Positions 4,525-61,323 are shown, numbered from the whole stretch's first letter. The stretch is DNA of 63,047 bases, filler included, from Reclinomonas americana ATCC 50394 (GCA_048213135.1; 7 parts of 6 records of this genome joined end to end with filler, not necessarily neighbours in it); one strand, 5' to 3'. Notes: a model not told the origin generated them from the sequence alone. Translations and numbers: made by a program.

Positions 4525-4551
4525 GGTGAATGAAGAGCACGCAACCACCCT

Positions 4552-7500
4552 TCACTGCGGTGCGCCGGCACGGAACTCGCGAATTCTCTCCAGCAGATCG
4601 GGACCTACAAGGCACCATTCCTCGTCACCATCAATTCCAGTGTCTCGCAAGATCGCACATGGAACACGTGACGCAACGAGGTATCAGGTCGGCCTCGGAG
4701 ATCGGCAAGTTGGTGAACGGATTCTTGCCCTTGTCCATGATGCATCGCCGGATCGCGTCGCGGTCAACCACTTGCCCGCTCGGCAGCTCCACGGGGTCGC
4801 TCATGAGGTCGTCGGTCAGCGCATCTGCGTGCGAGAGCAGCAAATTAGCAGTGGCACGCACCCATATACTGTGGCGCGCATACCACGCAGTTCAGGCGGC
4901 GGATCGGCAAAATAGGCAGCCTGCCGTTCGACCACGAGCTCCGCGTCGACCAGGCGACGCAAGAACATGTCGAAGCGGTCGCACTTGTCGTCCGGAATGA
5001 TTCCACGATTGCGCAAGAGCACCGAGGCGTTCTCGAATGTGCGTCTCTTGTAGTACAACGTGTCTCGTACGACAGCCAACGGAAACTGCTCCTCGTCCGA
5101 CATGCACACATACATGCTGGCGGTCTCGCTCAGCAGTCGCCGCGGATCGAACTTGTACTGCTCGCGATTCTCCACCTGGCGCGCAGGCCGACCACGACGA
5201 TCAGTAACACGAACAGTCAACCAGCCACACACTGTACTCCCATCATTTCTCACCTGCAACTGCGAGTTGGCATTGGTCAAGTAGTTCAGCAAGTAGTTCA
5301 GGACGCCCACAACACGCGGCAGCATCGCCTGCGAGACAACACCATAAGCACCACAAGCAGGCAGTGTGAATGCGTGCTCGACGAGACCTCGCTGCAGAAA
5401 CGGCGGGGAATCATCTCCGACATCCAGCGTGTCATCTCGGTGGTGGCCATGGAGCACGAAATGTACGACTTGGCGCTCTTTTGGTTCTCTCGGTACTCGC
5501 GCACCTGCGCCTCTTGTGCGTCCTGCGCACGAGCAAGTGTCAGAACACAGCTGTGTCGTCGCCCTAAAAAATGGAACAGGGAGACTGACCGCCGGGAGCG
5601 ACAAGAAGGCTTCTTCGTGGCGCTGCAGCTCGTGCTCCCGAATCTTCTTCAGCGTGGCAATGGTCTCGTCCAGCAGATACGTGCAGTCGTTCAGCAGCAT
5701 GTGCAAAAAGTGATCAAAAAGCGAAGTGCTGTGGACACAGACCGTCAGCATCAGCAAGAACTATGCGCACGTGGAGGGAGCCAACACACGCACTTGGCCA
5801 AATCGAGAATGCGCGGCGTCCAGTGTCGGTGGGAGCGCATCTTGGCGAACACAAGAGCCACCAGGTGGCGTGCCTGGTACTTGTCGAATCTCACTGCAAA
5901 TACACAGTCAGATCACAATCAATATTCGCTGTCACACAAGAGCACACCACGCAACGTGCTTCCGCATCCACATACAGCTGAATGCTATTGTGTGAACAGC
6001 GGGGTCAGTGAGCTGTACATGCACCGAGGAGTGGAAAACGACGAAAAATGACGCAACATGCCAGGCACGAGCATCGCCGCAATGTCGGGATTGTCGAGCA
6101 TCACGAGCAGCGACGGTTCTCTCTGACCACGCTGAATGAGGTTGTACACCACCTGCGTGCACGCCAAACGTGAGAGCGTGAGTTGGAGGAGGAGGAGAGC
6201 GCATACAATGTCCGTCGCTCGTTGGCGTCTACCTTCAAGAAATCGTGCCGAATGCCTGCATTGGTCACCAGCCGCTTGTGTGCAATGAGCTGGGACATGA
6301 GGGCCAATGACCATGCGCACGACTGCACTTGCAGCACATTGGCGCTCTCGGTAAGTGCCGTGAAGTGAGCCAGCAACTCGCCCACATTCTCGGCCAGCAT
6401 TGTGGGCAGCATGGCATAGGTCGGCGGGACCTCGTCGGGAATGGATCTGTTGGTGTGCACGCAAGTCAGCCAACGCAGGTGCCAGCGCGTTGTGTGCGTG
6501 GCAGACTCATACCGCACGCTAGTCGGGCTCTCCAGCGCGTCGGGACTGCTACCAATGGCGTGTGCCAGCAGGTAGCGTGATGATGCCTCTGTGCGACAGG
6601 AACACAGTTCAGTCAGCGGTGCCAGGTATACACGTACTGCTCGGCAACGCACCGAGGTAATCCATCATAGGCAAGAACACATCGCGATCGTAGATCAGGC
6701 GATCAGTGGCCAGAAGCCACCGCCACTGCGGCATGAGTGGCTCCAGACCCTGCATCCCACACGAAAAAATAAGCAAAAGAACACACATCGCCATCAGTGG
6801 GGGCACGACGGCGGCGCACCTGGCCAGCGTGCTCGATTTCGGCCTGGTGGTACGTGTTGGCGGTGAACTCAAACACCTTGCGGGTGCGTATGAGACCCAG
6901 ATTGATGCAGCGGGCGGTCATGAAAAAGAGCTCCGAGTTGAAACTCTCCGGCACCTCCGGATGCTCTGCGACCGGCGTCATTCACGGCGCGCCATATTTG
7001 AGTTACACTAGAGCGCCACACAGACACACACCTCCTGCTAGATACTGTTGCACATTCTCCTCCGACCACACCAACCGATCGAGTGGGTGCATTGCGCAGT
7101 AGCGCTTCGTCAACGTGTACTCGGGTGCAATGGTCGACAGACGGCTGCCGGTGATCACCGGAGCCACCAAGTTCAACATAATGGCCGACAGGTTCAAGAA
7201 CTGCGACACATGCGTGTGAGACATGCAGACAGGCAAGGCGGCAGCAGTGCTCTCGCGACACGCAACAAAGCCCTCGGTGCCAAACTGGTGATCGACGTCA
7301 CCACCAAACAGCTCAAACTGCGGGTGAGAAGCAATTGTCAGCGTGCGTGCGTGTGCGTTGAAGAGCTGCAACGCAAAAAAACACACCCGAATGGAGTTGC
7401 GCATACGGCTGGCGTCCAGCGCCACGCCGATCCACTGCAGAAGTGCCGCGCGCGAAGGACTGTTGCGATCCTTCAGAAAATTGCGGAAAATCTGAGTGAG

Positions 7501-9150
7501 CACACTCTGCGCACAGCGACACTCCACACAGTGAGTGAGGTGGGTAGCCGGACGACGGCCAGCACGTCACTGCACCTGGTGTGACTGGATTTTGCTGGAT
7601 AGAACAGAGATCTTGGAGTCGACGTCCTTTTGCGAGAGCATTTTGGTGGGGAAGAAGCGGCGCAGCAACTCGGTCTGCATTGCACACGTGAGCACCCACG
7701 TTGAACGCACACACACATGGAAATGAGAGGCACACAACCTGCTGGAGCGGGTGAAAGCCCACAAGAATGCCGAGCAGCGACGACACTTCCAGCTGTCGAC
7801 CGTAGAACGACTCGTGCAGTGGCATTGGCATCCATTGCGGCTGGCTGATCAGCTGTGCACTCGCTCGACAGAGTGAGAACGAGGTGATTGCGGGAAGCGC
7901 GGAGGGATCAGCTGCCGGCGTACCACTTTCTGCACCGCACGGATGCACGTGAGCTTCTCGCACGCAATGACCAGTGGGAGGAAGTTGTCCAGCATGGTCA
8001 TCTTGACAAGCTCACGATTCACGTGATTGAACTGGGCGATGCACATCTGATAATGGCGCATCGTGTTGTCAGTGCTCTCTCGTCTCTCCACACACACGCA
8101 TCACACCACGTTACCTTCAGCAGCTCAATCTCGTCACTCTCATGCACCCCCTCCCAGATGGCCATCATGAACTCGGCAGACACCGAATGCTGACCCTCGC
8201 CACACAGACCACGCAGCAGTTCGCGACCGGCCCGTCCCCAACTGGAGTGCCAAGGAAGGTTGGCTTCCAACAACGACTAAAGAGAGAGGTGGCGGCATCG
8301 GCACTCACTTTGACACGTCTCGCTCGCCGGCATACATGATCTCCAGTTCGGCACTCCTGCACAGAGGATGAGCAACTCGTAGCGACGACACAAAAAAGGA
8401 CAGCGACGACGGAACACTGCTGCCGAATGCTCGCAGTCAAACAGATCGTAGTTGAGCAGCAGCAGCTTGCTGATGCGGCAGATCACAGGCAACACCGCCG
8501 ACTGTAGCACATCGACCACCGGCGCCTGCGATTCCTGCGCTCGCTCCATGAATGTCACCAACTACGAACAACAGAGAGCGAGAGATGCATGCGCGGACCT
8601 CCAGTCGCTCCGCGTGCTCCCTCGCTCGCTCAAAGCAGCCGGCCAAGTACTCGAGTCGCGACTGCATTCGTGGCTTGTTTCGCGGGCTTGATCCAGCAGC
8701 AGCCGACGACGATGTCGGTGATGATGACGATGCCGAAGAGGAGGGCGACGATGGAGACGAGACTTCGCCTTCTGCTTGGCCTCTGTGCGGCAGAAAGCGC
8801 GGGTCGCACGAGAGGATCTCCACTAGCGCAGGTTCCACGTGCTGTGCACACAGGAGCAGTGCTGTGCAGAGGGTGGCATTGAGTTGAAGAGACAAGAGAC
8901 AAGAGCGCGTGTGTGTGTGTGGAGACGCAACGACGATTGGCTTGTGCGAGCTCCAGATGGATGCATTGCAGGTGGTAGTAGGTACGCGGATCGCGCTGTT
9001 GTTCCACCGCATTAGTGTGTGTGTATGTGAGTGAGAGAGTGTGTGACACGTGTAACTCGACGCAACAGAGGGATCCACTGTGGCCTGCAGCACGACATTC
9101 AGTGCACGCGATATGCTGCGCGCCAACTCTTCCTCTTCCGAGTCACTCAT
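4552..9150 (-). CDS. UFD2: Ufd2/UBE4-family U-box ubiquitin conjugation factor E4, more than 20 exons
   Basis: Spliced motifs TEGFFLNLSAIML, FNSELFFMT, FLHMLLNDCTYLLDE, QVENREQYKFDPRRLL and a C-terminal U-box PPPELRDALTDDLMSDPVELPSGQVVDRDAIRR...NPFTNLP. Confidence 0.93.
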
Positions 9151-9388
9151 TGCTCACTCGCTACGAAACACACAAGATCACACAAAACACGCTGCGTCGC
9201 CAACTTTTGCCGGGTTTTGCTTTGTCGTCGCACGGGACATGATCACAAAAAAAGCAACATCACTTCACTCGCCGTGACCGCCAAAGCTGCCAGTTCTTCG
9301 CTGCAGCGTCGCTGATCACTACGTCGTACACACACAAAGCAGAAAAAAAAGTACTTACAACAGGAAAAATCCATTAACAAAAAATGAA

Positions 9389-12300
9389 TCAAAATTTGGC
9401 ATCGTGCCCGTGCACGAAGCCTCCCGACAAGTGACGGTACTCCACAATCTGCTGCCGAGCTCGCAACTGCGAGTCGTTCAGCAGAGCCAACTGTCGTAAT
9501 GTGATGGCGGAGGCGCGCTCGTTGCCGGCGACGTCGATGCTGCGCAGCGTGCTTCCCGGCCGCGACAACGACGACACAATGGCGAGAATCGCTGCATCGT
9601 CCAGATGATTGTCTGTCGGTGGCGACGAGTGGTGAGTGCAGTGACTAACGAGTGCGGCGCTGTGACGGAGTCGTGCGTACCCGAAATCATGAAGCGTCGT
9701 AGACTGTTGTTTTGCCAGAGGGCGGTCGCCAGCATGAGGCCACCAAACGTCGCAATGCGTTGCCCTGTGACGCAGTGAGAAGGTCAGCCTCTCTTCCCCC
9801 CAGCGCGCCCGTTGGTGAACGGACTCACATGACACGTCGAGCACTCGGAGTGTCGTCGTCTGCTCGACGAAGCGAGCCACAATGACGGCGCCCTTGTCGG
9901 TCAACAGATTGCCTGACACAGAAGCAACGCACGGTTAGTGGCGTTGAGGAGGCTGCGCGAATATGGAACACCGCAGACGTAACGACTAATGTCGAGGTAG
10001 GTGAGTGTTGGACATTGTGCGGCGCCAGTCAGCAGCGCCTCGATGCCGGCATCACCAATTTGGTTGCCTGCATTGCACAAAGTGAGTCTGCGACCGCAGT
10101 TCTCGTGTTCCACATTTGCACTCCACCACACCTGCCAAGCAGAGCCGCTGTAACCTGCCGTTTTGCGGCAGGTGCACGAGAATGTGGTTGGCCAGCTCTG
10201 GACCAATGTTGTTCTCTGCACATTCTCAACATCAGTCAGCGGCTTGTAGTTTCACAACGCAGTCGCTGCATCGTAGCCCCGTACCGCTAATGTTGAGTTC
10301 GGTCAACGACGTGTTTTGCGTCAAGCGCTCCCACAAAAAGCGGGAGCCACGGGCGCCCAGCTTGTTGCCGCGCAGATTCAGCGACGTCAGCGTCTGGTTG
10401 ACGGCCAACGCACTGGCCAGTGCCGCGCCACCAAACTTCATGAAGCCAAACTCGCTGCTGCCGGGGCTGACGGAGCTGAAGCCTTTGCCGCCACGCCCTG
10501 CTCCCAGACACACGCCGAATGAGCACATGCCTTCTCTCTCTCTCTATCAAGAAACAGAGTGGCGTACCTGTTGCAGAGTCATCGCGTCCACCGGTAATGT
10601 TGTTCCACTCGAGATTCAGGCGGACGAGTGCCTTATTATTCTGCAGAGCCTCCGCAACCATGGCCGCACCCTCGTCTTTCAGATCGTTAACTGTATGCGG
10701 GAAGACCAGTGAGACAGGTGAAATAGCTGTGCTTTCGCCCAGCCCCATCGCCACGCAACAGCCGAGTGACAGGCATTCGAGCGTCGGGTGACCATCCACA
10801 AACTGGGCGAGAGCCACCGAGCCAGCTGGACCGCAGTGTGCGCCACTCAAGTCCAACGAGCGCAGTGGTGTGATGCGCTCCGCCTGCACCACCTCTCCCG
10901 CTGCGATTTGCTCAGCCTCGACGGCCTCGGACCGCTGCTGTCTCCTCAAATGCCGCATCAGTTCACGCACAAGTCGCTCCGTGGATCCACGCGGCACCAG
11001 AACTGTGCACGTCCAAAAAAAGGTGAGACAACAAACAGGCGGAGAAGGACAGGCCCCTCCCAGCTGCGCGGTCGCACCTCGAAGGTGGCTCACTCCCGTG
11101 AATGCCTCGGTCAGTGCCTCGAATTGGTCAATCTCGTGCAACTCGGCGCACGTGGCCTGTGCGTACACCATTTCGCACCAGGCTCGCGATGTCATGCGTG
11201 TGGGTGCCAGGTCGCCCACATTCAAAAATGAGAATATTCGTTTCCACAAGGCCTGCGTTGCCGCTATCGTGGGTATTCCCTCTCGTTGTTTTCCCCTCTT
11301 CAATACACGTGCACTCACCGGTTCCGGCAGCAAGTGATCGAGACCGCGGAGTGGCGACACCGGCCCCCGCGCTGTCGCCAGCGCTCCACCGGCGCCGACA
11401 CGTTTCCGGCTGAGTGGCGACGGCTCCGAGAAGGTGTACTTGAGTGGTGGTAGTTGGGTGACAGCCGCCGTCGCCGTGTCGATGCTGAGTGGGGCGGCGT
11501 ACCGTGCCTTCGGCTTTGGCACAGCAAACGACGGATTGTTACCGCCAGCGGCTGCCGATTTCGGGTGCGGTGGCACGCCAAAGGTGCGTGGCGAGGTCGA
11601 TGACGAGCTGCCAGAGGAGGACGACGAGCCGGAGCTGCGACCACCCGAAAACGGACTAATGCGATTGTTGTTGCGCGTTGTGCGTACCAACGGTGGTGTC
11701 AGCCGCCGTGCCGGATCGACCAAAGTCGCCGCTGGTGGCATGAGTTGCCTGGCGGTCTCGGTGCTGATGAGTGGCGTGGCAGAGGGTTCGGAGCTGCGGC
11801 GTTGCGACGACGATCGTTGTAGCCGTGGAGGCACAAACGAGGACGGAGCAGGTGGGGCCGACGGCAACGCCAACGGCAACACCGGCTGCTCCTCGTTGGC
11901 CAGCGACGGCAGCAGTGGTGGCAGCTGATCCTCCTCCATCGCCTCCGGCTCGTCGACTGGTGAGAACGATGCTGGTGGCAGGGATGCCGCCTGCGCCGTG
12001 TTGCTGCGCACTGCAACGCTGTCATCGTGCGGCGAAAACGGCGCCTCGACAGACCGTCTGAACAGCGACGGCGAACCAGAGGAGAGCGGTGGTGACGGTG
12101 ACGGCTGTGGCGAGAATGCCACAATCGGCAGCAATGCAATGTCAGCCGCATCCACGACCACCACGTCGTCGTCGTCGTCGTCTTCTTCGCCCTGTTGCAT
12201 CTCCTCGGGTGGTGACACGGACGACTTGACGGATGCAGATGATGCCGACGACGCCGTTGATGCTGATGACGATGACGAGGAGGAGGAGGAGGAGAAGGAA

Positions 12301-13103
12301 GAGCGAGCGGCGCCTCCACGATGTTTCTTGGTCGATTCCCTAAACGCCTCCAACATGCTTCCCTGATCGTCGTCGTCGTCGTCGTCATCGTCGTCGACAA
12401 CATCGTCATCGTCGCCCCCGACTCCATTCTTCCCCACGCCCGGAGCGGCACTGAGCTGCACATTGTCGCGCGCAAAGAACTTGCCATTGTCGATCGAGTT
12501 GTTGCGTGCGCCAGACCACACCGGTGGACCACTCAGCGACGCTCGCCGCCCTCGATCGAGCGCCATGCGCAACAGCGAGTGCGGGTGATGATGATGCGGT
12601 CCAGGCACCGACTGCGTCACGTCCATCTTGTTGCAGGCGCCCGGCCGGGCCTCTTGACCCTGTTCGACACAAGCACAGATCAACAAACCGAACACATCTC
12701 CTCTCTCTCTGTGTCGCGTGTGCCCACTGACCGCCTGATCGCCATCGTCGCTGAGCAGCTCCTCCATGTCGGGATCGTCGGGAGAGAACGCCTGCTTGAC
12801 CAGTGTGCGCAGGGCGGCGCCTTGTGGAAAGGGCGTCAGTTGTCGCACAGGTTCGTCCGCTGCTGCTGCTGCTCCAGCTGCTGCCGACCGCCCTGTGTGT
12901 GCGACCCCCGAAGTGCCTGGCTCATCGCTGTGGCCACTCGCCGCAGGCGTCGACGAAGAAGAGGAGGACGACGACGAAGAAGACGAGTGCGCGTGTGCGG
13001 GTGGTGTGGGCACACACACGGCCACCGTCGGCACCATGCTCAGCGCACCAAACGAGCTCCCGTGCAACGACCGTGCACGCGACATGGGGGGCGGACGCGA
13101 CAT
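9389..13103 (-). CDS. Long disordered S/P/D-rich N-terminus + F-box-like motif + RNI-type leucine-rich repeats
   Basis: LWKRIFSFLNVGDLAPTRMTSRAW (F-box-like); repeats LRSLDLSG, LECLSLGFNDLKDEGAAMVAEAL, LTSLNLRGNKLGARG, LTYLDISRNLLTDKG after splicing. Confidence 0.75.
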
Positions 13104-13194
13104 CTGTGTGCGTGTGCGCCAAAACACCACTGAAAATCTTGCCTTTCTGCAGCCCAACGGTTTGCGTGCCCAAATTGCTGCCATTTCATTTGCC

Positions 13195-14948
13195 TTACAG
13201 AATGGAAGCCAGCGCATTCTCAAAACGATAGGCGCGCGCGGTGCTGGCCGGCAAGCGGTTGACAGCCGCACGTGCAGTTTCGACACCGCCCCACGGACTC
13301 TCCTTCGGGTCCAGCGGCGCGAAGAAGGGATCTGCAAGGCAATCCCGTGAGAAAATAATTGCAGAAAAGCTCCAAGTCCACAGCTGGAGAAACGCAACGA
13401 TCGGTGCCAAACATGACGCGGCTGGGGTCGGCGAGCTTGGAGAGGGCCGACATGGCGGGATCGCCGTACACCAGGCAGTCGTAGTACAGCATGCGGAGGT
13501 AGTGAGACGGCGGGTGGGCCAGCTTGTGAGCCACCTGTGACAGTGGTCAGTCAACTCACGAGGGAAAAGAGGAATAGAAGAGAAAGCGCACCTCCTTGTC
13601 TGTGTGGACGCAGTGATCGAGGCGGGCCATGAGGTACGGCAGGGTGCCACCGCCGTGCGCAATCAGCATGCGCAGCTGCGGGTGACGATCGAGCACGCCC
13701 GACAGCACCATGCGACACACGGCGGTCGTGGTCTCGAACGGGAAGCCGAGTGCCAGGTACAGACTGTGACCGTAGCCACCTACGCGCGCACACACACACA
13801 CACACATATGAGACAGGGCGCCGAAAAGAATGCCCGTCAACAACCGGGGAGAATGCGAACCGCCATACGCCTCGTTGCCGAGACCGTAGTGCGGGTGCAG
13901 GAAGAGCATCAACTTGGTGCGCTCGAGCGCCGACCACAACGGCTCCATGAGCGGATCGTCCAGACCGCGACCGAGCCCCGTCGAGCCAATGATGAATCCA
14001 CGGCAGTGCGGGAGACGCGCCACGCGTTCAATTTCCTCCACACATGCTTGCGGATCGGCCTGCACACGCAAGGTCAGCGCAGAGCAAAAAAACACGACAC
14101 GCACCCAGCGACGCACGCACGCACCACCGGCAACACGCCAAACCACAACAGCCGCCCATTCGAGTTGGCACTCATTCTGCACACTGCGTGAGCAACGATA
14201 ACGAAGGAGCGAAAAAAGAGCGCGGCGCAAACGCAACTGCTCCAGATCGTCATTCACGATCTTGGCCAGTCCAGGCGCCTCAGCCGCGCCCACAAAGTCC
14301 AGCCACGGATTCGCCACACTCACCACCGACACCTACAACGAAGGTCAGCAGCAACAACACAGAGCACAGGAAGAGCTGTTGCTGGACCTGAATCTTATGC
14401 ACGTCCATGAAGCGGATCTTCTCCTCGGCCGAGTAGAACGAGGGCCCAATGACACGCCCGCGCTTGGTGCTCGCCTCCGCCGCCTCATCCGGCAGGATCA
14501 CCAAGCGATCCTCTCCACTCTCCGCGTGCCGAAACACAAACGGAACCGTCGAGCGTGCACGCATAATCTACAACCCCCCCGTTATAGTGTTGGCGACGAA
14601 TGCACAAGAGTGGAAGAGTGGAAGAGCGCAACATCCATGTACACAGGCGGATACATGTGCGTGTGCACATCGACCGTCCAGCCCTCCTCGTAGCGCTTCA
14701 TCGCCTGCGCACTCACCGACTACGCGCACGTGGCATGAGCGTGCAACAAAACACACACACTTGCACACAGAGGAGGAGAACGCAACANNNNNNNNNNNNN
14801 NNNNNNNNNNNNNNNNNNNNNNNNNNNNNNNNNNNNNNNNNNNNNNNNNNNNNNNNNNNNNNNNNNNNNNNNNNNNNNNNNNNNNNNNNNNNCGACTGTG
14901 ACGCCACACAGGCAACGCGCGAGCCGACGCACGCAACAACATGGACAT
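13195..14948 (-). CDS. Amidohydrolase-2 family decarboxylase, isoorotate (uracil-5-carboxylate) decarboxylase/ACMSD-like; contains an N gap
   Basis: Spliced motifs VDVHTHMYPP, SVANPWLDF, FLHPHYG, LALGFPFETT, AHGGGTLPYL, MFGTDHPFF. N-terminus MSMLLRASARALPVWRHS resembles a mitochondrial presequence. Confidence 0.88.
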
Positions 14949-15038
14949 GCTTCCTCCCTCGCCACTCACTGTGCGCGCGCGTGTGTGATGCAGGACGCAG
15001 ATGAGCATGAACTTCACTCTCCCTCGCTCGTCACTCTC

Positions 15039-15726: not shown

Positions 15727-17717
15727 ATGTGGATTGGCAAGGTGTGCAGGCGTCACTCTCTATGTGTACACGCGTGTGTGCGTGTGAGTTGTGAGTGTGA
15801 CTGTGTGTGCGTGTGTTTGTTGTGCAGCGGCATCCCGCTGGCTACTTGATGGTAGTGTTTGGTGAGTGTGCGTGATAGTGCTTCAACACATACACACAGG
15901 CGCACACGCACACAAGAGACCAGTGCACACAAGACAAAAAAGTGATCAGTGTCAAGAAATCAGCGCATTCTCGCGCCTTCTCATCAGTTGCACACACGCA
16001 TCTGCGTGCACTGTGTAGCAGGCGACAGTGTGCATGGCGTGTGCGTGTGTGTGGTGTGTGTGCGCGCGCCATGGCCGTCTTCTCTCATCTCTCGCGCGCG
16101 CGCAGTTCTTGGTCTTGTCGGCTACGTGTCGTATGCGTATGCGTTCGAGTCGGTGCCGTATCGGTTGAGCGAGTCGCCTGCGTGGAGTGTCAGCCGATTA
16201 GTGGTCTATGTGCTGGGCGCATCGCTGTTGACGGTGTCGTATTTGCGATGTGTGTTTACGAATCCAGGGTGCGTCCCTCAAGCCCTTCCATCGTCGTCGT
16301 CGTCGTACTGGCGCTGAGTTGGTCGGTTGTGCTTGTGGCGTAGGTGGGTTCCACCGGACTGGCATGTTGGGGAGCAGTCGGCGGAGGACTCGGAGGCGAG
16401 TGAGATCGAGACCGGTCGTCATCGCTCGCAGCATGCAAACAATGGCGCCGTCGCCACTGTCGGCAACGGAGCCGGCACGACGGTGACCACCACGAATGCC
16501 ACGTCGACTGCTGGCCACTTGAGCGATCATTCTGGCTCCGACTCTGATGACGACGACGAGGACGATGAGGAGATTGATCTCGAGACGTGCGTCTTGTCGC
16601 GTTACCTTACTGTGCGCGCTCGTGAAGACTCAGGCTGGGAGTGATGCACAGTGGCCACTCCATCCCCGTACGAAGGCAACAACGAACGGCGCTGCTGCCA
16701 CCGAATCGCGCCGCCGGTCGTGGTGGATCGTCGCAGCCGTTTGACAATCCGCTCCGTCACGAGGACATTCGGGCGTGCCGCCGCTGCAATCGTCCCAAGC
16801 CCGAGCGTGCACACCACTGCAGCATTTGCAAGCAGTTGCGTGCCTGTCTCCTTCTGTGTTGCATGAGTGCTCTGCTCTGTTGCTTACCCCGATGTCGTGG
16901 TTGTGCGCAGTTGTGTGAAGCGAGTGCGTCTGACTGTCCCCTGGCGTCGCTGCACGGCGTGAGTCTCTTCTCACTCCTTCTCTTCCGCTGTCTATCACCA
17001 GATGGACCACCACTGCCCGTGGGTTCACAACTGCGTCGGCTTCCACAACCACAAATTCTTCTTCCTGTTCCTCCTGTGGACGTGCTTCACGTGTCTGTGG
17101 GTGGCCGTCACCATGTTCCCCGATTTCTTGGCCGTCCTCAAGGTGAGACACGCACGCCCACGCATCCAGTGCCCTCCTTGTTGTTTTTGACTCTTACGCT
17201 ACTGTGCAGGACGCAAGTGAGCGTCCGCAAGGACTCTCGACCAACATCATGGTGGCGTTCTTCATCTCAGGCGTCTTCGGCATGGTCCTCATCTGCTTCG
17301 GTGGTTTCCACATGCACCTCATCTTCACCAATCAAACCACCCTCGAATCCATCGGCACGGGTGGTTCGTCTTGTTTTCCCCCCTCTCCCACCTGTGTCGG
17401 CGTCTGACTCACACTGTGTGGCGCAGCGGAAAAGTATGACATGGGCGCGTACGCAAACGCTCGTCCCATTCTCGGCGGCAGCATGTGGCAGTGGTTCCTG
17501 CCGGTGGCCGTCGATCCAGCGGTGGCCGGCGACGGCATGCATTTTGATCGACGAGAGAGTGACGGATCATACACGTATTACGAGAGGACACGGCGGAAGA
17601 CGCAGCATAGTTCCGAGGTTCGTCGCTGACAATGGTGAATTGTTGTCCGTCTGATTGCTCACTCGCACCTCCCGACGCTGCGCGCAGGTCCGCGTTCAAC
17701 CACCGAGTTTCACATGA
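15727..17717 (+). CDS. DHHC (zDHHC) palmitoyl-acyltransferase
   Basis: Spliced [48 protein letters not shown], plus TNPG, NQTTLE and YDMGAYAN motifs. The stop could alternatively be 17629 if the last intron is not used. Confidence 0.92.
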
Positions 17718-20904: not shown

Positions 20905-21004
20905 NNNNNNNNNNNNNNNNNNNNNNNNNNNNNNNNNNNNNNNNNNNNTTAATTAATTAANNNNNNNNNNNNNNNNNNNNNNNNNNNNNNNNNNNNNNNN
21001 NNNN
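20905..21004. other. Artificial scaffold spacer N44-TTAATTAATTAA-N44
   Basis: Exactly 100 nt with a six-frame stop linker at 20949-20960; the identical design recurs six times in the window. Confidence 0.97.
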
Positions 21005-34757: not shown

Positions 34758-34857
34758 NNNNNNNNNNNNNNNNNNNNNNNNNNNNNNNNNNNNNNNNNNN
34801 NTTAATTAATTAANNNNNNNNNNNNNNNNNNNNNNNNNNNNNNNNNNNNNNNNNNNN
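34758..34857. other. Artificial scaffold spacer
   Basis: N44-TTAATTAATTAA-N44. Confidence 0.97.
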
Positions 34858-35316: not shown

Positions 35317-37073
35317 ATGCGGCCACTTGCACTGGCTCTCTACATTCACTGGCCGTGGTGTCATCGCATATGCCCGTACTGCGACTTTGTCAAGTTCTAT
35401 ACGCACAATCGCCTCTTTGTGGGCGCACATGCAGAGATTCTGATATTCGCTTTCCAGGTATCGATGGCGATCCGAGGTGCACGGATCGGTTGACTATGTG
35501 CAGCGCATGACGAGGTAAGGCGAGCGATCGATGTGTGAGCGATTTTCTCAGAGCATTGATCGCGTGTCAGATCGATCATGCGAGCGATCGATGCGATGCG
35601 ACCTGCGGCAGACAACTCGACGTCGCTCTGGTCGATCCATTTCGGTGGAGGAACGCCCTCGTTAGCACCAGTGCGTTGCATCACCACTGCTGTTGCCCTT
35701 TCCGATCGGTTTGTTGATTGGCGGCGCAGTCGTGGGCGGTGCGAGCGATTGTCGAGCACGCCAAGGCAGTGCTCGGTGCGCCGATCAGTGGAGAGGTGGG
35801 ACTGGAGGCGAACCCGACCGAGTCGCTGCTGTCGGTGGAGTACATGGATGCGTTGCGAGAGGCGGGCGTGACGCGCTTGTCGTTGGGTGTGCAGTCGTTT
35901 GTCGATGAGCGGCTGCGCGTGCTGGGGCGCGATCACAGCGGCGAGGTTTGCTCTCGGGGAACTCGCCGTTGTGTGTATGATGCTCATGTGGCTGTGGCAG
36001 GAGGCGCTGCGGACGGTGCGTGCGGCAATGGAGCGCTTTCCGCACGTGTCACTCGACTTGATGTATGGGTTGCCGTCGCAGTCCACTGCGCAGTGGGAGA
36101 GCGAATTGGAGGTCAATCCCCACCCGACTCTATCAGTGTGCATTCACTCACAGTGGTTGTGGTGGTGAGACAGGAGGCGCTGCAGATGTGCAACGTTCGA
36201 CACGTGTCGCTGTACCAGCTCACGCTGGAGAAGAGAACGGCGTTGCGTGTTGATGAGTGTCAGCTGTTTTTTGCATGCCACTTATGTGCTCGTGCAGGTT
36301 TGCTCGCCTGCACGGCGCCGGCAAGCTGCAGGTGCCCGACGAAGACGAGTGTGCTGAGCAGTTTGACGCGGCAGTGGCAGTGGCGCGACGACACGGACTG
36401 CACCAGTATGAGGTAGTGTGCACGAGTGAGCAATGTTGCCTCGCCGACTCGCTCACACCACGTGCATGCAGATCAGCAACTTTGCGGCCTCGGAGACGGA
36501 CGAGTCGCGGCATAATTCACACTACTGGCACGGTGGCAGCTACATTGGCGTGGGGCCTGGGTTGCGTGAGAGCTCACCATGCTTCGACTTTGACTTGTGC
36601 AAGACAACTCACCACTGTTGTGATGCCTGCGCAGCGCCCACTCGCGCCTCCCATCGGCCGACGGGCAGCACCACTGGGCCACGGTGCAGATACTAGTTGC
36701 GTGCAGTCTGGTGCACGCTGGTGACGTCCCATCGTGCCTCACGACTTGTCGGCAGGATCCCGAGACATGGATGCAGCAGGTGGAGGCCGGGAACGACGGG
36801 TGCGTCCGACGCGATCCACTCACACATCGCCAGCGCGCCGAAGAGTACGTTCTCACTGCGGTGCGAACGCGACGCGGAGTGCACTGGAGCACGGTGCAGG
36901 AGCTGCTGCCGGCCGCCACGAGCGATCTGGTGAACATGGACATGCTGCACCATCTGGCTCACGAAGCCGGCCTCGTGCTGCTCCACGCACATGGTTTCAC
37001 GCTCACGCCAGCTGGCCTCCGCGTGGCCGATACCATTGCCACGCAGCTGCTGTTGCCACCAAGTGCAAGGTGA
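35317..37073 (+). CDS. RSAD1: HemW/RSAD1 radical-SAM heme chaperone (HemN-like)
   Basis: LYIHWPWCHRICPYCDF (CxxxCxxC), SIHFGGGTPSL, LEANP, RLSLGVQSF, DLMYGLP, HVSLYQLT, YEISNFA, SRHNSHYW, YIGVGPGAHSR. Confidence 0.93.
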
Positions 37074-37456: not shown

Positions 37457-38757
37457 ATGGGCGAGGAGAAGAAGCAAGACAAGCCGAGCAGTTACGCACA
37501 TGCAAAGAGAAGAAATGAGAAAGTTGCATGTGTGTCTCACTCACTCTCTTACACAGCTGGTGCACCGGCTGCATGGAAGAACTTTGTCGCTGGTGGTGTT
37601 GGCGGTGAGCACTCACACATACTCTCACTCTCTCACACGCACACATGCGCGTTGCAACTCACAACCTTGTTGCTCAGGCACGTTTTTGGTGTTTGTCGGG
37701 CACCCACTGGACACAGGTTTGCATTCCCACTCACACACGCACTCATCACTTGCATGTGTCTCACTCGTGCGCGCGTATAGTCAAGGTCCGCCTGCAGACA
37801 ATGACCGCCACTGCTGGTGCCCCGCAGTTCACGGGCGCACTCGACTGCTTCCAGCAGACACTGAGGAAGGAGGGCGTTGCGTGCCACTCTCGCCTCTCTA
37901 CTCTTGCCTCTCTTGCCTCTCTCACTGTCGCCAAACGCATAGTTCCGCGGGTTGTACAAGGGCGTCGGGTCGCCACTCATGGGCATCTCTTTCCTCTACT
38001 CGATCTGCTTCTACTCGTACGGTTTCGGCAAGAGCCTCTTTGCCGACAAGAACGACCCCGGCAAACCGCTCTCCATTCCCGCCATTATGGGCGCCGGTTG
38101 CGTCGCCGGCTTTGCCACCACAGTCACGTCCCTGTTCCCCCCTCCTCCGCTCATGGCTGCATGCTGACTGGTGAACGAGCAGATTGTGACGGTGCCGATT
38201 GAGCTGGTCAAGGCACGCCTGCAGATCCAGTACGCCACCGGCTCGGCCGAGTACAAGGGCGTCGTGGACTGCGCTGTCAAGGTGTATCAACGCAATGGAA
38301 TTGCCGGTCTCTATCGTGGTGTGATGGTGACGCTGCTGCGCGACGTGCCCGGCACGGCCGCGTACTTTGCCGGCTACGAAGTGGTGCGACGAGCGCTGGT
38401 CAAGGACGGTCAGAGCCTCGATTCTGTCAGCAAGTGGGGACTGCTCTTTGCCGGTGGCATGGCCGGTGCGTTTCTTGTTGTGCGGGAAAACACCACTGCG
38501 TCTGACTTGTGTGAACAGGCTGGGCCAACTGGCTGGCGATCTTCCCTATCGACGTCGTCAAGTCGCGCCTGCAGACGCAGCCAGACACACAACCACCGCG
38601 CTACACGGGTACTCTGGACTGCTTCCGCAAGATCTACCGCGCCGAGGGCATGCGCGGCCTCTTTGCCGGCCTCACCCCGACCATGGTGCGCAGCTTCCCG
38701 GCCAACGCCGCCTGCTTCTTCGGTTACGAGCTGGCCATGGATCTGTTGGGTCGCTAA
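37457..38757 (+). CDS. Mitochondrial carrier family protein (carnitine/acylcarnitine- or ornithine-carrier-like), 7 exons
   Basis: Three signature repeats PLDTVKVRLQ, PIELVKARLQ and PIDVVKSRLQ; RDVPG; RSFPANAACF. Confidence 0.93.
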
Positions 38758-42520: not shown

Positions 42521-42620
42521 NNNNNNNNNNNNNNNNNNNNNNNNNNNNNNNNNNNNNNNNNNNNTTAATTAATTAANNNNNNNNNNNNNNNNNNNNNNNN
42601 NNNNNNNNNNNNNNNNNNNN
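42521..42620. other. Artificial scaffold spacer
   Basis: N44-TTAATTAATTAA-N44. Confidence 0.97.
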
Positions 42621-48789: not shown

Positions 48790-48889
48790 NNNNNNNNNNN
48801 NNNNNNNNNNNNNNNNNNNNNNNNNNNNNNNNNTTAATTAATTAANNNNNNNNNNNNNNNNNNNNNNNNNNNNNNNNNNNNNNNNNNNN
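48790..48889. other. Artificial scaffold spacer
   Basis: N44-TTAATTAATTAA-N44. Confidence 0.97.
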
Positions 48890-49455: not shown

Positions 49456-52101
49456 ACCGCCGCTACCACCACCGTCCGCTCGCTCCTTGACAACGTTCAA
49501 GCCGGGTGTGCCGCGCAGACCCATCTTGCCCACAGTCTTGGTGAGGATCTCGGGCGGTCCAGGCAAACCTGCACACGCATCGAAATGAGCAGAGGAACAG
49601 CGAGCAGCGAGCAGCGGAGCACCAACACACCATGGATCTCGGCAAAGTAGTTGGCCCACTGTATGAGTCGAGGAGGTGCGTGTGTGAGTGAGTGTGAGAG
49701 AGAATGATATTGCAACACAGAACTTCTCCCATCACGCAAACCTTGACGAGGTTCTCCTTGTCCCATCCGACACGGCGCAGGGCTCCATTGTAATAGCCCA
49801 ACCACGCCTGGTATGCACGCGAGGCGCTGTCGTTCAGCTCGGAACGGCTGTCGGCCACCTGGCGCAACACTCCGGCAATGCGGCTCCTGTGGGAAACAGT
49901 GAGCGACTCAGAACGCTCCTTTCTTTCTCTCCACACGCAACTGGAATCCAGCATCGCTGCCCGGCATTGGCGACTCGGTGAGCGGCAAGTCACGCACCTC
50001 GCGCAAGAACGAATCCTCGAAGGGCGCCAGCACCAGCACACCACGTCCCTCCTTGCCGGCACGAGCCGTGCGGCCGAGGCGATGAATGTACTGGGCGCGA
50101 TCCGACGGCAGACCCACCTGGATCACACACGACACGTCGGGGTAGTCCATGCCACGAGCGGAGACGTCGCTGGAGAACATGACCATGTTGGTGCCCTCGC
50201 GGAACGTCTGCGACGTCTGTTCCGACAAAGGAAGCAAGTCAACACAGGGCAGGATCTTACGTTTTTTTCGCAAAAGAAAACGAACCTTGGTGCGGTACGA
50301 CTGCGACTTGCGCGAGTGAATCTCGAGCACCGGCAGCTTCAGCTCGTTGAAGAGCGCCGCGTAGAACGCCGTGTGATTGGCGGTCGGGAAGAACACCATG
50401 ATCTTGTAGTCCGGCAGCTCCATCTCCTCCTGCACGAGGCAGTAGAGGGTCTCCAGCTGCGCCTCGAGCGGCACAATCATGAACTGCTGTTGCACTTGCA
50501 CATTGGTGTTGACATCGTCCTTGATCGTGTCGATCTTGACGTGGTTCGAGCGCAGCGCCTCGTGAGCCACCTGTCGCACCTCCTGCGGGATGGTGGCCGA
50601 GAAGAGCATTGTCTGGCGCTCCGCCGGCAAGAAGCTCAGGATCTTCTCAATCGACGGTCGGAAACCCTATGCCCACGCAAAAATGGTCAGCGCACTCGTT
50701 CAGGGGACAGAGGGAGCACCCAAGTGAACGTACCATCTCCAGCAGCTGATCTGCCTCGTCGAGAATGAGCACGGAAATGCCCTGCAGGCGATCGGCCACG
50801 TTGCGGGTGTTCTCCAAGTGGTCAATCAGACGGCCGGGAGTGGCCACGAGAATGTCGCAGCCCGAGTTGAGGTTGGTCACGTCGCGCGACATGTTGGTGC
50901 CGCCAAACACCACCTGCACCTTGTACGGGTGGAAACGCAACAGCATCTCCGCCTCCTTGGCAATCTGCTGCGCCAGCTCACGCGTCGGCGACAACACCAG
51001 AGTCTGCGACACAAAAACACACCGAGCCATTTCAGTCTTTTTGCACAAACAGGAGGGACGGGGGAACAAGGCATGTGCACCTGGATGGCGGCACGCACTC
51101 GCGGCGGACTGCGCATCATGGTCTCAATGGCCGGGATGAGGAAGCCCAGCGTCTTGCCAGTGCCCGTCTTGGCCTTGGCCAGCACATCGATACCTACGCA
51201 CCACAGTGAGCCACAACTCCCCCTGCTCATTCCCTCCAACACACTCACCGCGTGCAGCCGGCTCAATGGTCATGGCCTGCACATGCGTCATGAGCTCGTA
51301 GCCAAACACCTCGGCCACGGCACGACGCGACTTCTCCGAGATGATCTGCACACCATCCACAGTGAGTCGTCGCCAGCTACTCCTCCTCGCACACACGCAA
51401 GCACGGCTCACCGTGCAATCCGCAAAGCGATGCTCCGACAGCGCATTCGACGTGGTGCTCGACACGAAACGCGCAGGCGGTGCAGCCGCAGAGCCAGCCG
51501 CAGCCGAGGCCGGACGCGGCTGCTGCTGCTTTGCCGGTTGCTGCACTCCACTGCCCGAGGCAGCCGAGGCCGGTCGCGGCTGTCGTCCACCTCGCGCAGG
51601 CGGAGGAGCCTCGTCGACCTCCATGGAGGCGGCCGCAGTCACAGTCGGCTGCTGCGCCATGGGGCACTCGCGCTTGAAGTGATCCGTGGCGCCGCACACG
51701 TGGCATCCACCAGGTGCGCCACCAGCAGCACGACGACGACGCGCGCCTCCATTGGCAGCAGGGGCCGCAGCACCAGAGCCACTGGCGACTGTGAGGCATG
51801 CAATGAGTGACAACTCCACTGGTGCACAACTGCCGCACATAGTAGATACCTGAAGGCACCTCGTCCTCACCACCAGCCGCATCGTCGCCTGTGTGTATGT
51901 GCGACACACACAAAGAAAGAGTTTGCGTTTTTTGGCGCGCGCGTTTGTGTGCATGTGCATCAACACCAACAAACCTGCACCACCACGACTTCCGCCACGA
52001 CGCCTGCGTTTTCTTGGCTGCGGGCTGCTTGTCTCCAGACCTTCTCCGTGGCGCTTTTGCGGAAGACCGCCGTTGCGCGAGTGTGCCTCAGCTCGATCCA
52101 T
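49456..52101 (-). CDS. DEAD-box RNA helicase (Mss116/CYT-19-like) with an N-terminal CCHC zinc knuckle; 3' end in gap
   Basis: Q motif GYELMTHVQ, AKTGTGKT, PTRELA, TPGRL, DEAD, SAT, ARGMD, HRLGRTARAG, AYQAWLGYY; knuckle CHVCGATDHFKRECP. Confidence 0.93.
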
Positions 52102-59182: not shown

Positions 59183-59282
59183 NNNNNNNNNNNNNNNNNN
59201 NNNNNNNNNNNNNNNNNNNNNNNNNNTTAATTAATTAANNNNNNNNNNNNNNNNNNNNNNNNNNNNNNNNNNNNNNNNNNNN
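59183..59282. other. Artificial scaffold spacer
   Basis: N44-TTAATTAATTAA-N44. Confidence 0.97.
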
Positions 59283-61223: not shown

Positions 61224-61323
61224 NNNNNNNNNNNNNNNNNNNNNNNNNNNNNNNNNNNNNNNNNNNNTTAATTAATTAANNNNNNNNNNNNNNNNNNNNN
61301 NNNNNNNNNNNNNNNNNNNNNNN
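61224..61323. other. Artificial scaffold spacer
   Basis: N44-TTAATTAATTAA-N44. Confidence 0.97.

Follow-up and report, generated by a model that had tools for sequence, protein, structure and literature searches.

GTTGCGT-type donors after exons that do not end in G in a Reclinomonas americana window: a possible one-base shift of the U1 register

The donors (5' splice sites) considered here come from a 63,047-base stretch of DNA of Reclinomonas americana ATCC 50394 (GCA_048213135.1), hereafter the window, in which many predicted introns start with GTTGCGT or a related heptamer and the exon before them hardly ever ends in G. With the first intron base numbered +1 and the last exon base -1, donors having T at +3, G at +6 and Y at +7 without G at +5 are called shifted, and those having G at +5 and Y at +6 ordinary; a slash marks the exon-intron boundary. 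The closest described parallel is the shifted-register 5' splice site of human, of which only tens are known. In the account of Roca and Krainer (2009) contained in PMC4856993, all U1 pairs at these sites are displaced by one position and G+1 faces C9. The GU at the cleavage site is retained and the exon ends in a base other than G, as in the oligonucleotide ACA/GUCAAGUAU of Table 2 in the same source, and in both respects the shifted donors of the window are alike. However, the human sites are atypical, whereas here shifted donors account for roughly a fifth to a third of the predicted introns (34 of 175 and 24 of 81 in the two sets described below) and are linked to the last exon base by a rule with very few exceptions. 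Moreover, +3 is always U in the window (by definition of the class) and the core is GCGU, not AAGU.

Other U1 registers contain a bulge or an asymmetric loop (Roca et al. 2012; Tan et al. 2016, PMC4856993; review PMC9311317), and they are characterised, as are the donors here, by one extra nucleotide between GU and the downstream pairing block. In the window G/GTAACGT (8114, minus strand), G/GTACCGT (25248, plus) and G/GTATCGT (33074, minus), which keep the exon G and carry an extra non-T base at +3, fit this description and, to judge by their sequence, look like bulged-register donors. The GTT class differs in that it has no retained -1 G and needs T as the extra base, which sets it outside the bulged registers. 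A dependence by which the exon-end G and the intronic 5' splice-site consensus compensate each other, is reported in the portions of PMC8283771 and PMC11732430 that deal with it; similarly, ordinary donors after non-G tend to have perfect cores here, but the known case stays within one register while in the window the spacing from cleavage site to core changes by one base. Finally, the GTGCGT donors of Mamiellophyceae and the +4 C donors of Thecamonas (PMC3879977, PMC2483917, bioRxiv 10.1101/2022.06.08.495308) share with the window an AG/GTGCGT consensus and a CTGAC-like branch site. The available parts of these papers do not mention a GTT class, and the distance between branch site and acceptor is about 10-20 nt here but 43-52 nt in canonical introns of Micromonas. 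Full-text searches of the literature, confined to main texts, yielded no description of a GTT donor class.

Introns were predicted with our own Viterbi gene finder, which combines a three-periodic Markov coding model, an intron content model, a first-order donor model from +3 to +10, branch-site and acceptor matrices and a length term. The intron score takes no exon bases, so that the -1 base is not directly selectable. A first version, built on a codon model and position matrices, over-called introns and drifted, and a second one drifted upward in self-training from 222 to 284 introns; filters and homology checks were therefore used instead of raw output. The paths on both strands contain 604 introns in all, 175 of them with both flanking exons outscoring the opposite strand, and a stricter filter (signal of at least 6, both exon scores of at least 2.5, length 45-110, read-through broken or clearly non-coding) leaves 81.

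A contingency table of -1 base against donor class, which the initial annotation had called for, shows a strong association when run on these predicted introns. In the 81-intron set none of the 24 shifted donors is preceded by G (A 12, C 7, T 5), compared with 33 of the 45 ordinary donors (Fisher p = 5.6e-10), which bears out the annotation's further statement that ordinary donors mostly follow G; the remaining donors have -1 G in 8 of 12 cases. The figures are 1/34 versus 55/87 in the 175-intron set (p = 1.7e-10), and among the 44 introns of the range 4552..14948, on which the annotation had focused, 0/12 shifted versus 22/32 of all other donors (p = 6e-5). When the donor model was switched off, with GT alone required, 21 of the 24 shifted donors were recovered, and the association was still seen in the 419 much noisier introns of that run (8/40 versus 55/114, p = 0.0025). 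The scarcity of G is also apparent relative to the exon baseline of 0.18 (0/24, p = 0.008), and a level below the baseline fits a choice between two alternatives and not an independent system. The commonest -1 base of the shifted class is A, at 12/24, whereas internal GTT of exons is preceded by A at a rate of 0.24 (p = 0.004), a preference that would be expected if -1 faces U10 of U1.

The same bias can be read from the window without any gene model. GTTGCGY occurs 72 times, where 39.3 +/- 6.1 copies are expected, and none of 100 shuffles reaches that number. Sorted by preceding base, with expectations from 200 dinucleotide-preserving shuffles, there are 18 copies of A/GTTGCGT (3.0 expected), 12 of C/GTTGCGT (4.8), 13 of T/GTTGCGT (5.0) and 3 of G/GTTGCGT (3.3); the excess over chance is thus confined to positions after non-G. 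Of the three G-preceded copies, at 38097, 4545 and 36561, only the last resembles a donor. The copy at 38097 lies, as its translation reads, within a mitochondrial-carrier exon, where the gene path reads through and splices at 38123 into a next exon that matches Pfam Mito_carr, and the copy at 4545 stands immediately past the Ufd2 stop codon. T/GTGCGT is enriched as an 8-mer as well (59 versus 25.0 expected). This enrichment probably comes from TG-rich runs like GTGTGCGTG inside introns and not from donors, and 6-mer counts are consequently uninformative for ordinary donors.

Protein homology provides a third line of evidence. Profile hidden Markov models (HMMs) were made from homologues of three genes, and 43 junctions were scored against read-through and all in-frame GT-AG alternatives within 45 nt. 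At 19 of these the predicted junction beats every alternative by at least 5 bits, and in this homology-fixed set G precedes 0 of 6 shifted donors but 13 of 13 other donors (Fisher p = 3.7e-5). Three of the six belong to a Ufd2/UBE4-like gene for a U-box ubiquitin chain elongation factor (4553..9150, minus strand). T/GTTGCGT at 7260..7266 opens a 66-nt intron whose removal restores the conserved ..EGF/FLN.. (margin 10.3 bits), T/GTTGCGT at 6051..6057 a 73-nt intron with a gapless alignment across the junction LVPG/IIQLYV (7.7 bits), and C/GTTGCGT at 4671..4677 another 73-nt intron that beats every in-frame GT-AG alternative by 5.5 bits. The other three are found in an amidohydrolase gene of the Amidohydro_2 family (13195..14968, minus strand): T/GTTGCGC at 14626..14632, with a 65-nt intron and the gapless junction HTHMYPPVYMD/IMRARS (15.5 bits), A/GTTGCGT at 14231..14237, with a 61-nt intron and a junction likewise gapless (6.8 bits), and C/GTTGCGT at 13392..13398, which has the highest margin, 21.0 bits. 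At this last donor the split codon C/AT specifies the His of the conserved GTDHPFF; the His is encoded only with GT...AG boundaries, which fixes the boundary before GTT, given an AG acceptor. All predicted introns of the shifted class begin with GT, as shifted-register sites of the U2 type do, and the margins of 5.5 to 21 bits at these six junctions are indirect evidence that cleavage takes place at that GT. Motif counts, predicted introns and homology-anchored junctions thus agree, and they confirm within the window the observation from which this work started, namely that shifted donors occur almost only after non-G. The -1 bases on which it had been based were also read correctly, being C, C, T, T, C and T for the Ufd2 donors 4677, 5955, 6057, 7266, 8931 and 9066, and C, A, T and T for the amidohydrolase donors 13398, 14237, 14632 and 14786 or 14937.

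The rule extends beyond GTTGCGT. Further shifted donors of the 81-intron set read A/GTTGAGT (twice), A/GTTACGC, T/GTTTCGT and T/GTTCCGT, and the 175-intron set adds C/GTTACGT, C/GTTTCGT and others. Since GTTGAGT, GTTACGY and GTTTCGT are the one-base-shifted counterparts of G/GTGAGT, G/GTACGT and G/GTTCGT, the rule generalises in the way that a change of register predicts. It depends on the register and not on T at +3 alone, for ordinary-register donors that have +3 T (e.g. G/GTTCGT) are preceded by G in 8 of 10 cases, compared with 0 of 24 shifted ones (p = 2.5e-6). Similarly, when the G-Y block of a donor stands one base further along, -1 G is found in 0/24 with T as the extra base and in 6/9 with another base. 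The shifted core is nearly invariant (+4 G in 21/24, +5 C in 22/24), whereas its ordinary equivalents are loose (+3 G in 28/45, +4 C in 21/45), as would be expected if the core offsets a lost pair with C8. Upstream of -1, ordinary donors show little base preference at -2 and -3. The two classes do not differ in intron length, branch site or acceptor, and phase-2 introns make up 13/34 of the shifted and 15/87 of the ordinary class in the 175-intron set. U12-type donors have the consensus RTATCCTT together with a matching branch site; this donor motif is present in none of the 81 high-confidence donors.

The best reading of these observations, to which we assign a probability of about 0.5, is that U1 pairing is shifted by one base, the intron's G+1 replacing the exon's G-1. 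Predicted introns of the window start in two ways: an exon-final G goes with G/GT and a loose core (GTGCGT, GTGAGT, GTACGT and many weaker forms), an exon-final A, C or T usually with /GTT and the nearly invariant GCG(T/C). Aligned on their pairing partners in U1, both forms would represent a single motif, G-(G/T)-T-G-C-G-T. In the shifted form G+1 would pair with C9 of U1, normally the partner of the exon's last G, and the third base, U, with A7, normally the partner of U+2, which would leave one mismatch at C8. Cleavage before the only GU would then fall one base upstream of its usual place relative to the U1 helix, and during catalysis the extra U would have to be bulged opposite U6. The near-complementary use of the two classes points to a choice between alternatives, as an independent recognition system would be indifferent to -1. 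Moreover, where GYGCGY or +4 C donors occur in other lineages, the 5' end of U1 is of the standard type, according to the part of bioRxiv 10.1101/2022.06.08.495308 that treats them, which makes a model with one U1 reasonable.

Pairing was computed with two assumed U1 5' ends, the standard AUACUUACCUG and a G5 variant like that reported for Mastigamoeba. Given the assumed standard end, shifted donors form on average 6.5 gapless pairs in the shifted register compared with 4.0 in the canonical one; the values for the assumed G5 end are 7.3 and 3.1. The shifted register is the more stable one in 18/24 (standard) and 24/24 (G5) donors, hence the greater complementarity lies with the shifted register under the assumed U1, while for ordinary donors the canonical register wins in 45/45 (standard) and 44/45 (G5). 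In the minimum-energy duplex of shifted donors G+1 is predicted to pair with C9 in 18/24 (G5) and 8/24 (standard), and with C8 in 0/24 (standard) and 1/24 (G5); ordinary donors have G+1 opposite C8 in 41/45 and 40/45.

A number of points weigh against this reading. The organism's own U1 may differ from both assumed ends, and with the standard end the predicted duplex of shifted donors is weak (mean -1.2 kcal/mol) and contains the G+1-C9 pair in only the 8/24 just given. Removing the extra T in silico improves binding, the natural form being better in just 0/24 and 1/24 cases for the two assumed ends, so that U1 stability alone fails to explain why N/GTTGCGT donors (24) outnumber ordinary donors after non-G (12). 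T at +9 of shifted donors (6/24) does not mirror the preference of ordinary donors for +8 T (21/45). Shifted -1 G is also rarer than ordinary -2 G (0/24 versus 9/45, p = 0.02), which a pure one-base shift would not predict. The data are also of limited scope, being drawn from one 63-kb window and from introns that are all predicted and not transcript-verified, and homology leaves 24 of the 43 scored junctions unfixed. Finally, the rule is statistical and not absolute. A probable G/GTTGCGT donor, already singled out as the exception in the initial annotation, is located in a HemW-like radical-SAM gene (36561..36567, plus strand, 74-nt intron), where the sequence indeed reads tgg/GTTGCGT. It lies on the chosen gene path after an exon that corresponds to HemW profile positions 231-257, and its case depends on this path and on a motif that the junction would presumably restore. 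Ordinary donors after non-G exist as well. There are 12 in the 81-intron set, some of which are prediction errors, but 36416 (A/GTGTGC) is such a donor between two exons that adjoin without a gap on the HemW profile, the first covering positions 203-231 and the second 231-257. The idea that the intron's own first G compensates for the missing exon G through a change of register thus draws support from the statistical rule, the other shifted cores and the pairing counts in the two registers, but it stands against a duplex energy that favours sites without the extra T and a rule that has exceptions. If it holds, G facing C9 must be valued above G facing C8, a preference that could come from a protein such as U1-C, from a subsequent step that involves U5 or U6, or from a variant small nuclear RNA (snRNA).

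Such a variant could also act on its own. A second snRNA, e.g. a U1 with A for C at position 8 that would be fully complementary to GUUGCGU, or another first-contact factor may serve the shifted class, which would then have its own consensus instead of a displaced reading. No other donor heptamer is as common as GTTGCGT, with 24 to 34 copies in the gene-finder runs, the shifted core is far more uniform than ordinary cores, and the weaker binding that the extra U causes with both assumed U1 ends suggests that something else may favour it. In addition, altered U1 5' ends that match unusual donors are described for Entamoeba and Mastigamoeba in the relevant part of bioRxiv 10.1101/2022.06.08.495308. 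Yet an independent system should ignore the exon G, and this is at odds with the fall of -1 G to 0/24 from a baseline of 0.18 and with the almost complementary classes, which is why we consider such a system unlikely. When metagenome contigs were scanned for a U1-like 5' end, ATACGYAMCTG plus a loop motif, at least 119 loci were obtained; by the motif filter none among the matches listed was U1-like, a result uninformative on this organism, and two of those listed have a downstream ATTGCAC, neither being U1-like by eye. A less probable explanation does without any shift: U1 would stay in its canonical register (G+1-C8, U+2-A7) with the extra U bulged, and the link to non-G would express a well-known trade-off, in which the exonic and intronic parts of a 5' splice site make up for each other's weakness. 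U1 is known to pair with human sites that bulge out a base at +3 or +2, as the pertinent part of PMC4856993 states, the G/GTAACGT, G/GTACCGT and G/GTATCGT donors resemble bulged forms, and the trade-off does exist in the window, where non-G precedes 6/16 perfect-core but 6/29 other ordinary donors of the 81-intron set. But a bulge should not call for T in particular, nor should it respond to the -1 base, contrary to the 0/24 with T and 6/9 with other bases, and a trade-off predicts relaxation to the baseline of about 0.18 G and not to zero. Nor does the G+1-C8 pair on which this explanation depends appear in more than one of the 24 minimum-energy duplexes with either end.

There is little to recommend the view that the extra T has no present function and is a historical footprint, left by a mobile intron family or by T duplications that entered where the exon ended in a base other than G. 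Micromonas does have mobile introns whose families each carry a fixed donor sequence, according to the section of PMC3879977 devoted to them, but here the intron interiors do not share the sequence that marks introner elements: the mean score in pairwise local alignment is 7.22 between shifted introns, 7.34 between ordinary ones and 7.22 between one of each class, and shuffled sequences reach 6.60. The likeness of lengths, branch sites and acceptors in the two classes and the recurrence of the same rule in four other cores speak against a footprint too. The least credible explanation is an artefact of intron prediction, despite the drift of self-training toward too many introns and the errors that homology has exposed, where one in-frame intron (13720) proved false and two donors (14402 and 5232) had been misplaced in frame. 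The corrected forms of these two donors, cag/GTCCAG and cag/GTGAGA, each add a -1 G to the ordinary class, and removal of the 13720 intron drops a -1 C donor from it, so that the corrections sharpen the contrast. Moreover, the 8-mer counts are free of gene models, exon bases stand outside the intron score, 21 of the 24 shifted donors return without the donor model and the homology-anchored set gives 0/6 versus 13/13.

Not all shifted donors are fixed by homology; 5 of the 11 in the three genes (5955, 8415, 8931, 9066 and 49941) lie in variable regions. The Ufd2 gene, which has Pfam U-box and Ufd2P_core support, contains about 25 short introns and six GTTGCGT donors; its spliced model was aligned to an HMM from 11 homologues, the start and stop positions being our own reading of the sequence. 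At C/GTTGCGT (5949..5955, 62-nt intron) the flanking frames fit this HMM but a 5-residue gap falls on the junction, which is not fixed (margin -4.0). C/GTTGCGT at 8925..8931, in the poorly conserved N-terminal part, has a margin of 0.4, T/GTTGCGT at 9060..9066 (71-nt intron) one of -0.7, and the shifted-type T/GTTCCGT at 8409..8415 one of 2.2 bits, all on the minus strand. A word-based protein search with the poorly conserved Ufd2 reading frame gave no match. In a DEAD-box helicase gene (49456-52101), A/GTTGCGT at 49935..49941 (minus strand) lies in a variable stretch with a margin of -1.1. Moving the 5955 donor to 5937 (+3.9 bits) or that of 49941 to 49934 (+1.1 bits), as homology would have it, was rejected, because these moves merely close gaps in variable stretches and yield a 44-nt intron or an acceptor distant from the branch site. 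The Ufd2 gene also has tandem donors 3 nt apart at 7735-7738 (minus strand), cag/GTT/GTGTGCC, between which homology makes a difference of 0.5 bits; one reading of them, G/GTTGTGT, is the sole G-preceded GTT..GY donor of the 175-intron set.

A small natural experiment is provided by a leucine-rich-repeat gene (9441..13103, minus strand; Pfam LRR_6). Between 9441 and 10497 each 84-nt exon encodes one 28-residue repeat and the introns stand at the same codon position in every repeat, so that the junctions are paralogous. They read C/GTTACGT (9983), T/GTGAGT (9828), G/GTACGC (9680), G/GTGTGG (10131) and G/GTACGG (10284), i.e. the donor type varies with the exon's last base, T/GTGAGT being an ordinary donor after non-G. 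The first of these, at 9977..9983, is the shifted form of G/GTACGT; like T/GTTGCGT at 10753..10759, with a 69-nt intron, it belongs to a predicted intron. The amidohydrolase gene, named from Pfam and with homologues at 40-43 % identity along the spliced model, is interrupted by an N gap (14788-14892) that is flanked by two probable T/GTTGCGT donors on the minus strand. The one at 14780..14786 directly follows the gap, would have its exon within it and was not called by the gene finder; for that at 14931..14937, before the gap, the model joins across the gap and the acceptor is unreliable.

The DEAD-box model can be aligned with the homologue P0011 over 472 columns without a gap at the seven junctions covered. 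The gene has its closest protein relatives, for the helicase exon, in green algae and plants. Donors with two extra T are found at 49741 (minus strand, aag/GTTTGCGTG) and at 17458 (minus strand, agc/GTTTGCGTA); that at 49741 is fixed by homology (6.6 bits), follows G and counts as ordinary register (+5 G, +6 C). Two introns, 50217-50285 (69 nt) and 6447-6512 (66 nt), both on the minus strand, are divisible by three and devoid of stop codons, and a plain open reading frame scan runs through them. Across the former the Helicase_C profile continues from position 55 to 59, with a homology margin of 12.4 bits.

The window as a whole is gene-dense, intron-rich eukaryotic sequence of about 57 % G+C, with 22 N runs summing to 5,084 bases. 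Introns are short (about 65 nt, median 65; G+C 0.55), and the predicted ones have a CTGAC/CTCAC-like branch site about 10-20 nt upstream of a CAG acceptor. Six gaps (20905-21004, 34758-34857, 42521-42620, 48790-48889, 59183-59282 and 61224-61323), each of 44 N, TTAATTAATTAA and 44 N, are six-frame-stop linkers that string contigs together, hence gene neighbourhood across them may not be biological and gene order is uncertain. The predicted genes form three co-oriented blocks, on the minus strand to about 21.6 kb, on the plus strand from 23.7 to 41.7 kb and on the minus strand again from 42 kb; adjacent genes are fused by the gene finder. Gene names have Pfam or NCBIfam support (U-box and Ufd2P_core, Amidohydro_2, LRR_6, DEAD/Helicase_C, Mito_carr and a radical-SAM HemW-like family), and the closest protein relatives reach only about 40-58 % identity, too little for an origin in the Mamiellophyceae or Thecamonas. 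Mastigamoeba balamuthi, which has GUGCGC donors and an ACGUAC U1, was considered as a source too and rejected, since it has 3.4 introns per gene with a mean of 137 bp, in contrast to the very dense introns of about 65 nt here. No Rfam family, and hence no snRNA, was found in the 63-kb window, nor any tRNA, and solved structures yielded nothing useful for the HemW-like exon.

More tentatively than for the shift itself, one can imagine a genome-wide two-register donor code in which a G is required one position before the U that pairs with A7 of U1, whether this G is the last base of the exon or the first of the intron. If true, about one intron in four would be cut one base upstream of the canonical register, and neither exon ends nor the codons they contain would be bound to G any longer. 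The extra U is not favoured by simple U1 duplex energy, so recognition would have to rank the pair with C9 over that with C8 or rely on an snRNA variant of its own.

The concept of the register is known from rare human sites, and the scale on which it would be used here appears to be undescribed; the shifted donors look like the routine use of a recognition mode so far known as a rare human exception. This would matter greatly for the study of splicing, provided that the reading is confirmed by transcripts and by the U1 gene. In practice, gene finders with a single donor matrix would misplace or miss shifted junctions. The genome would also supply hundreds to thousands of native substrates on which to study how the cleavage site is selected if the GU lies one base away from where the U1 helix would place it, and which contact makes the exon-end G important. 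For the organism itself, intron positions and phases need not be constrained by the last base of the exon, and the shifted class is the richer one in phase-2 introns.

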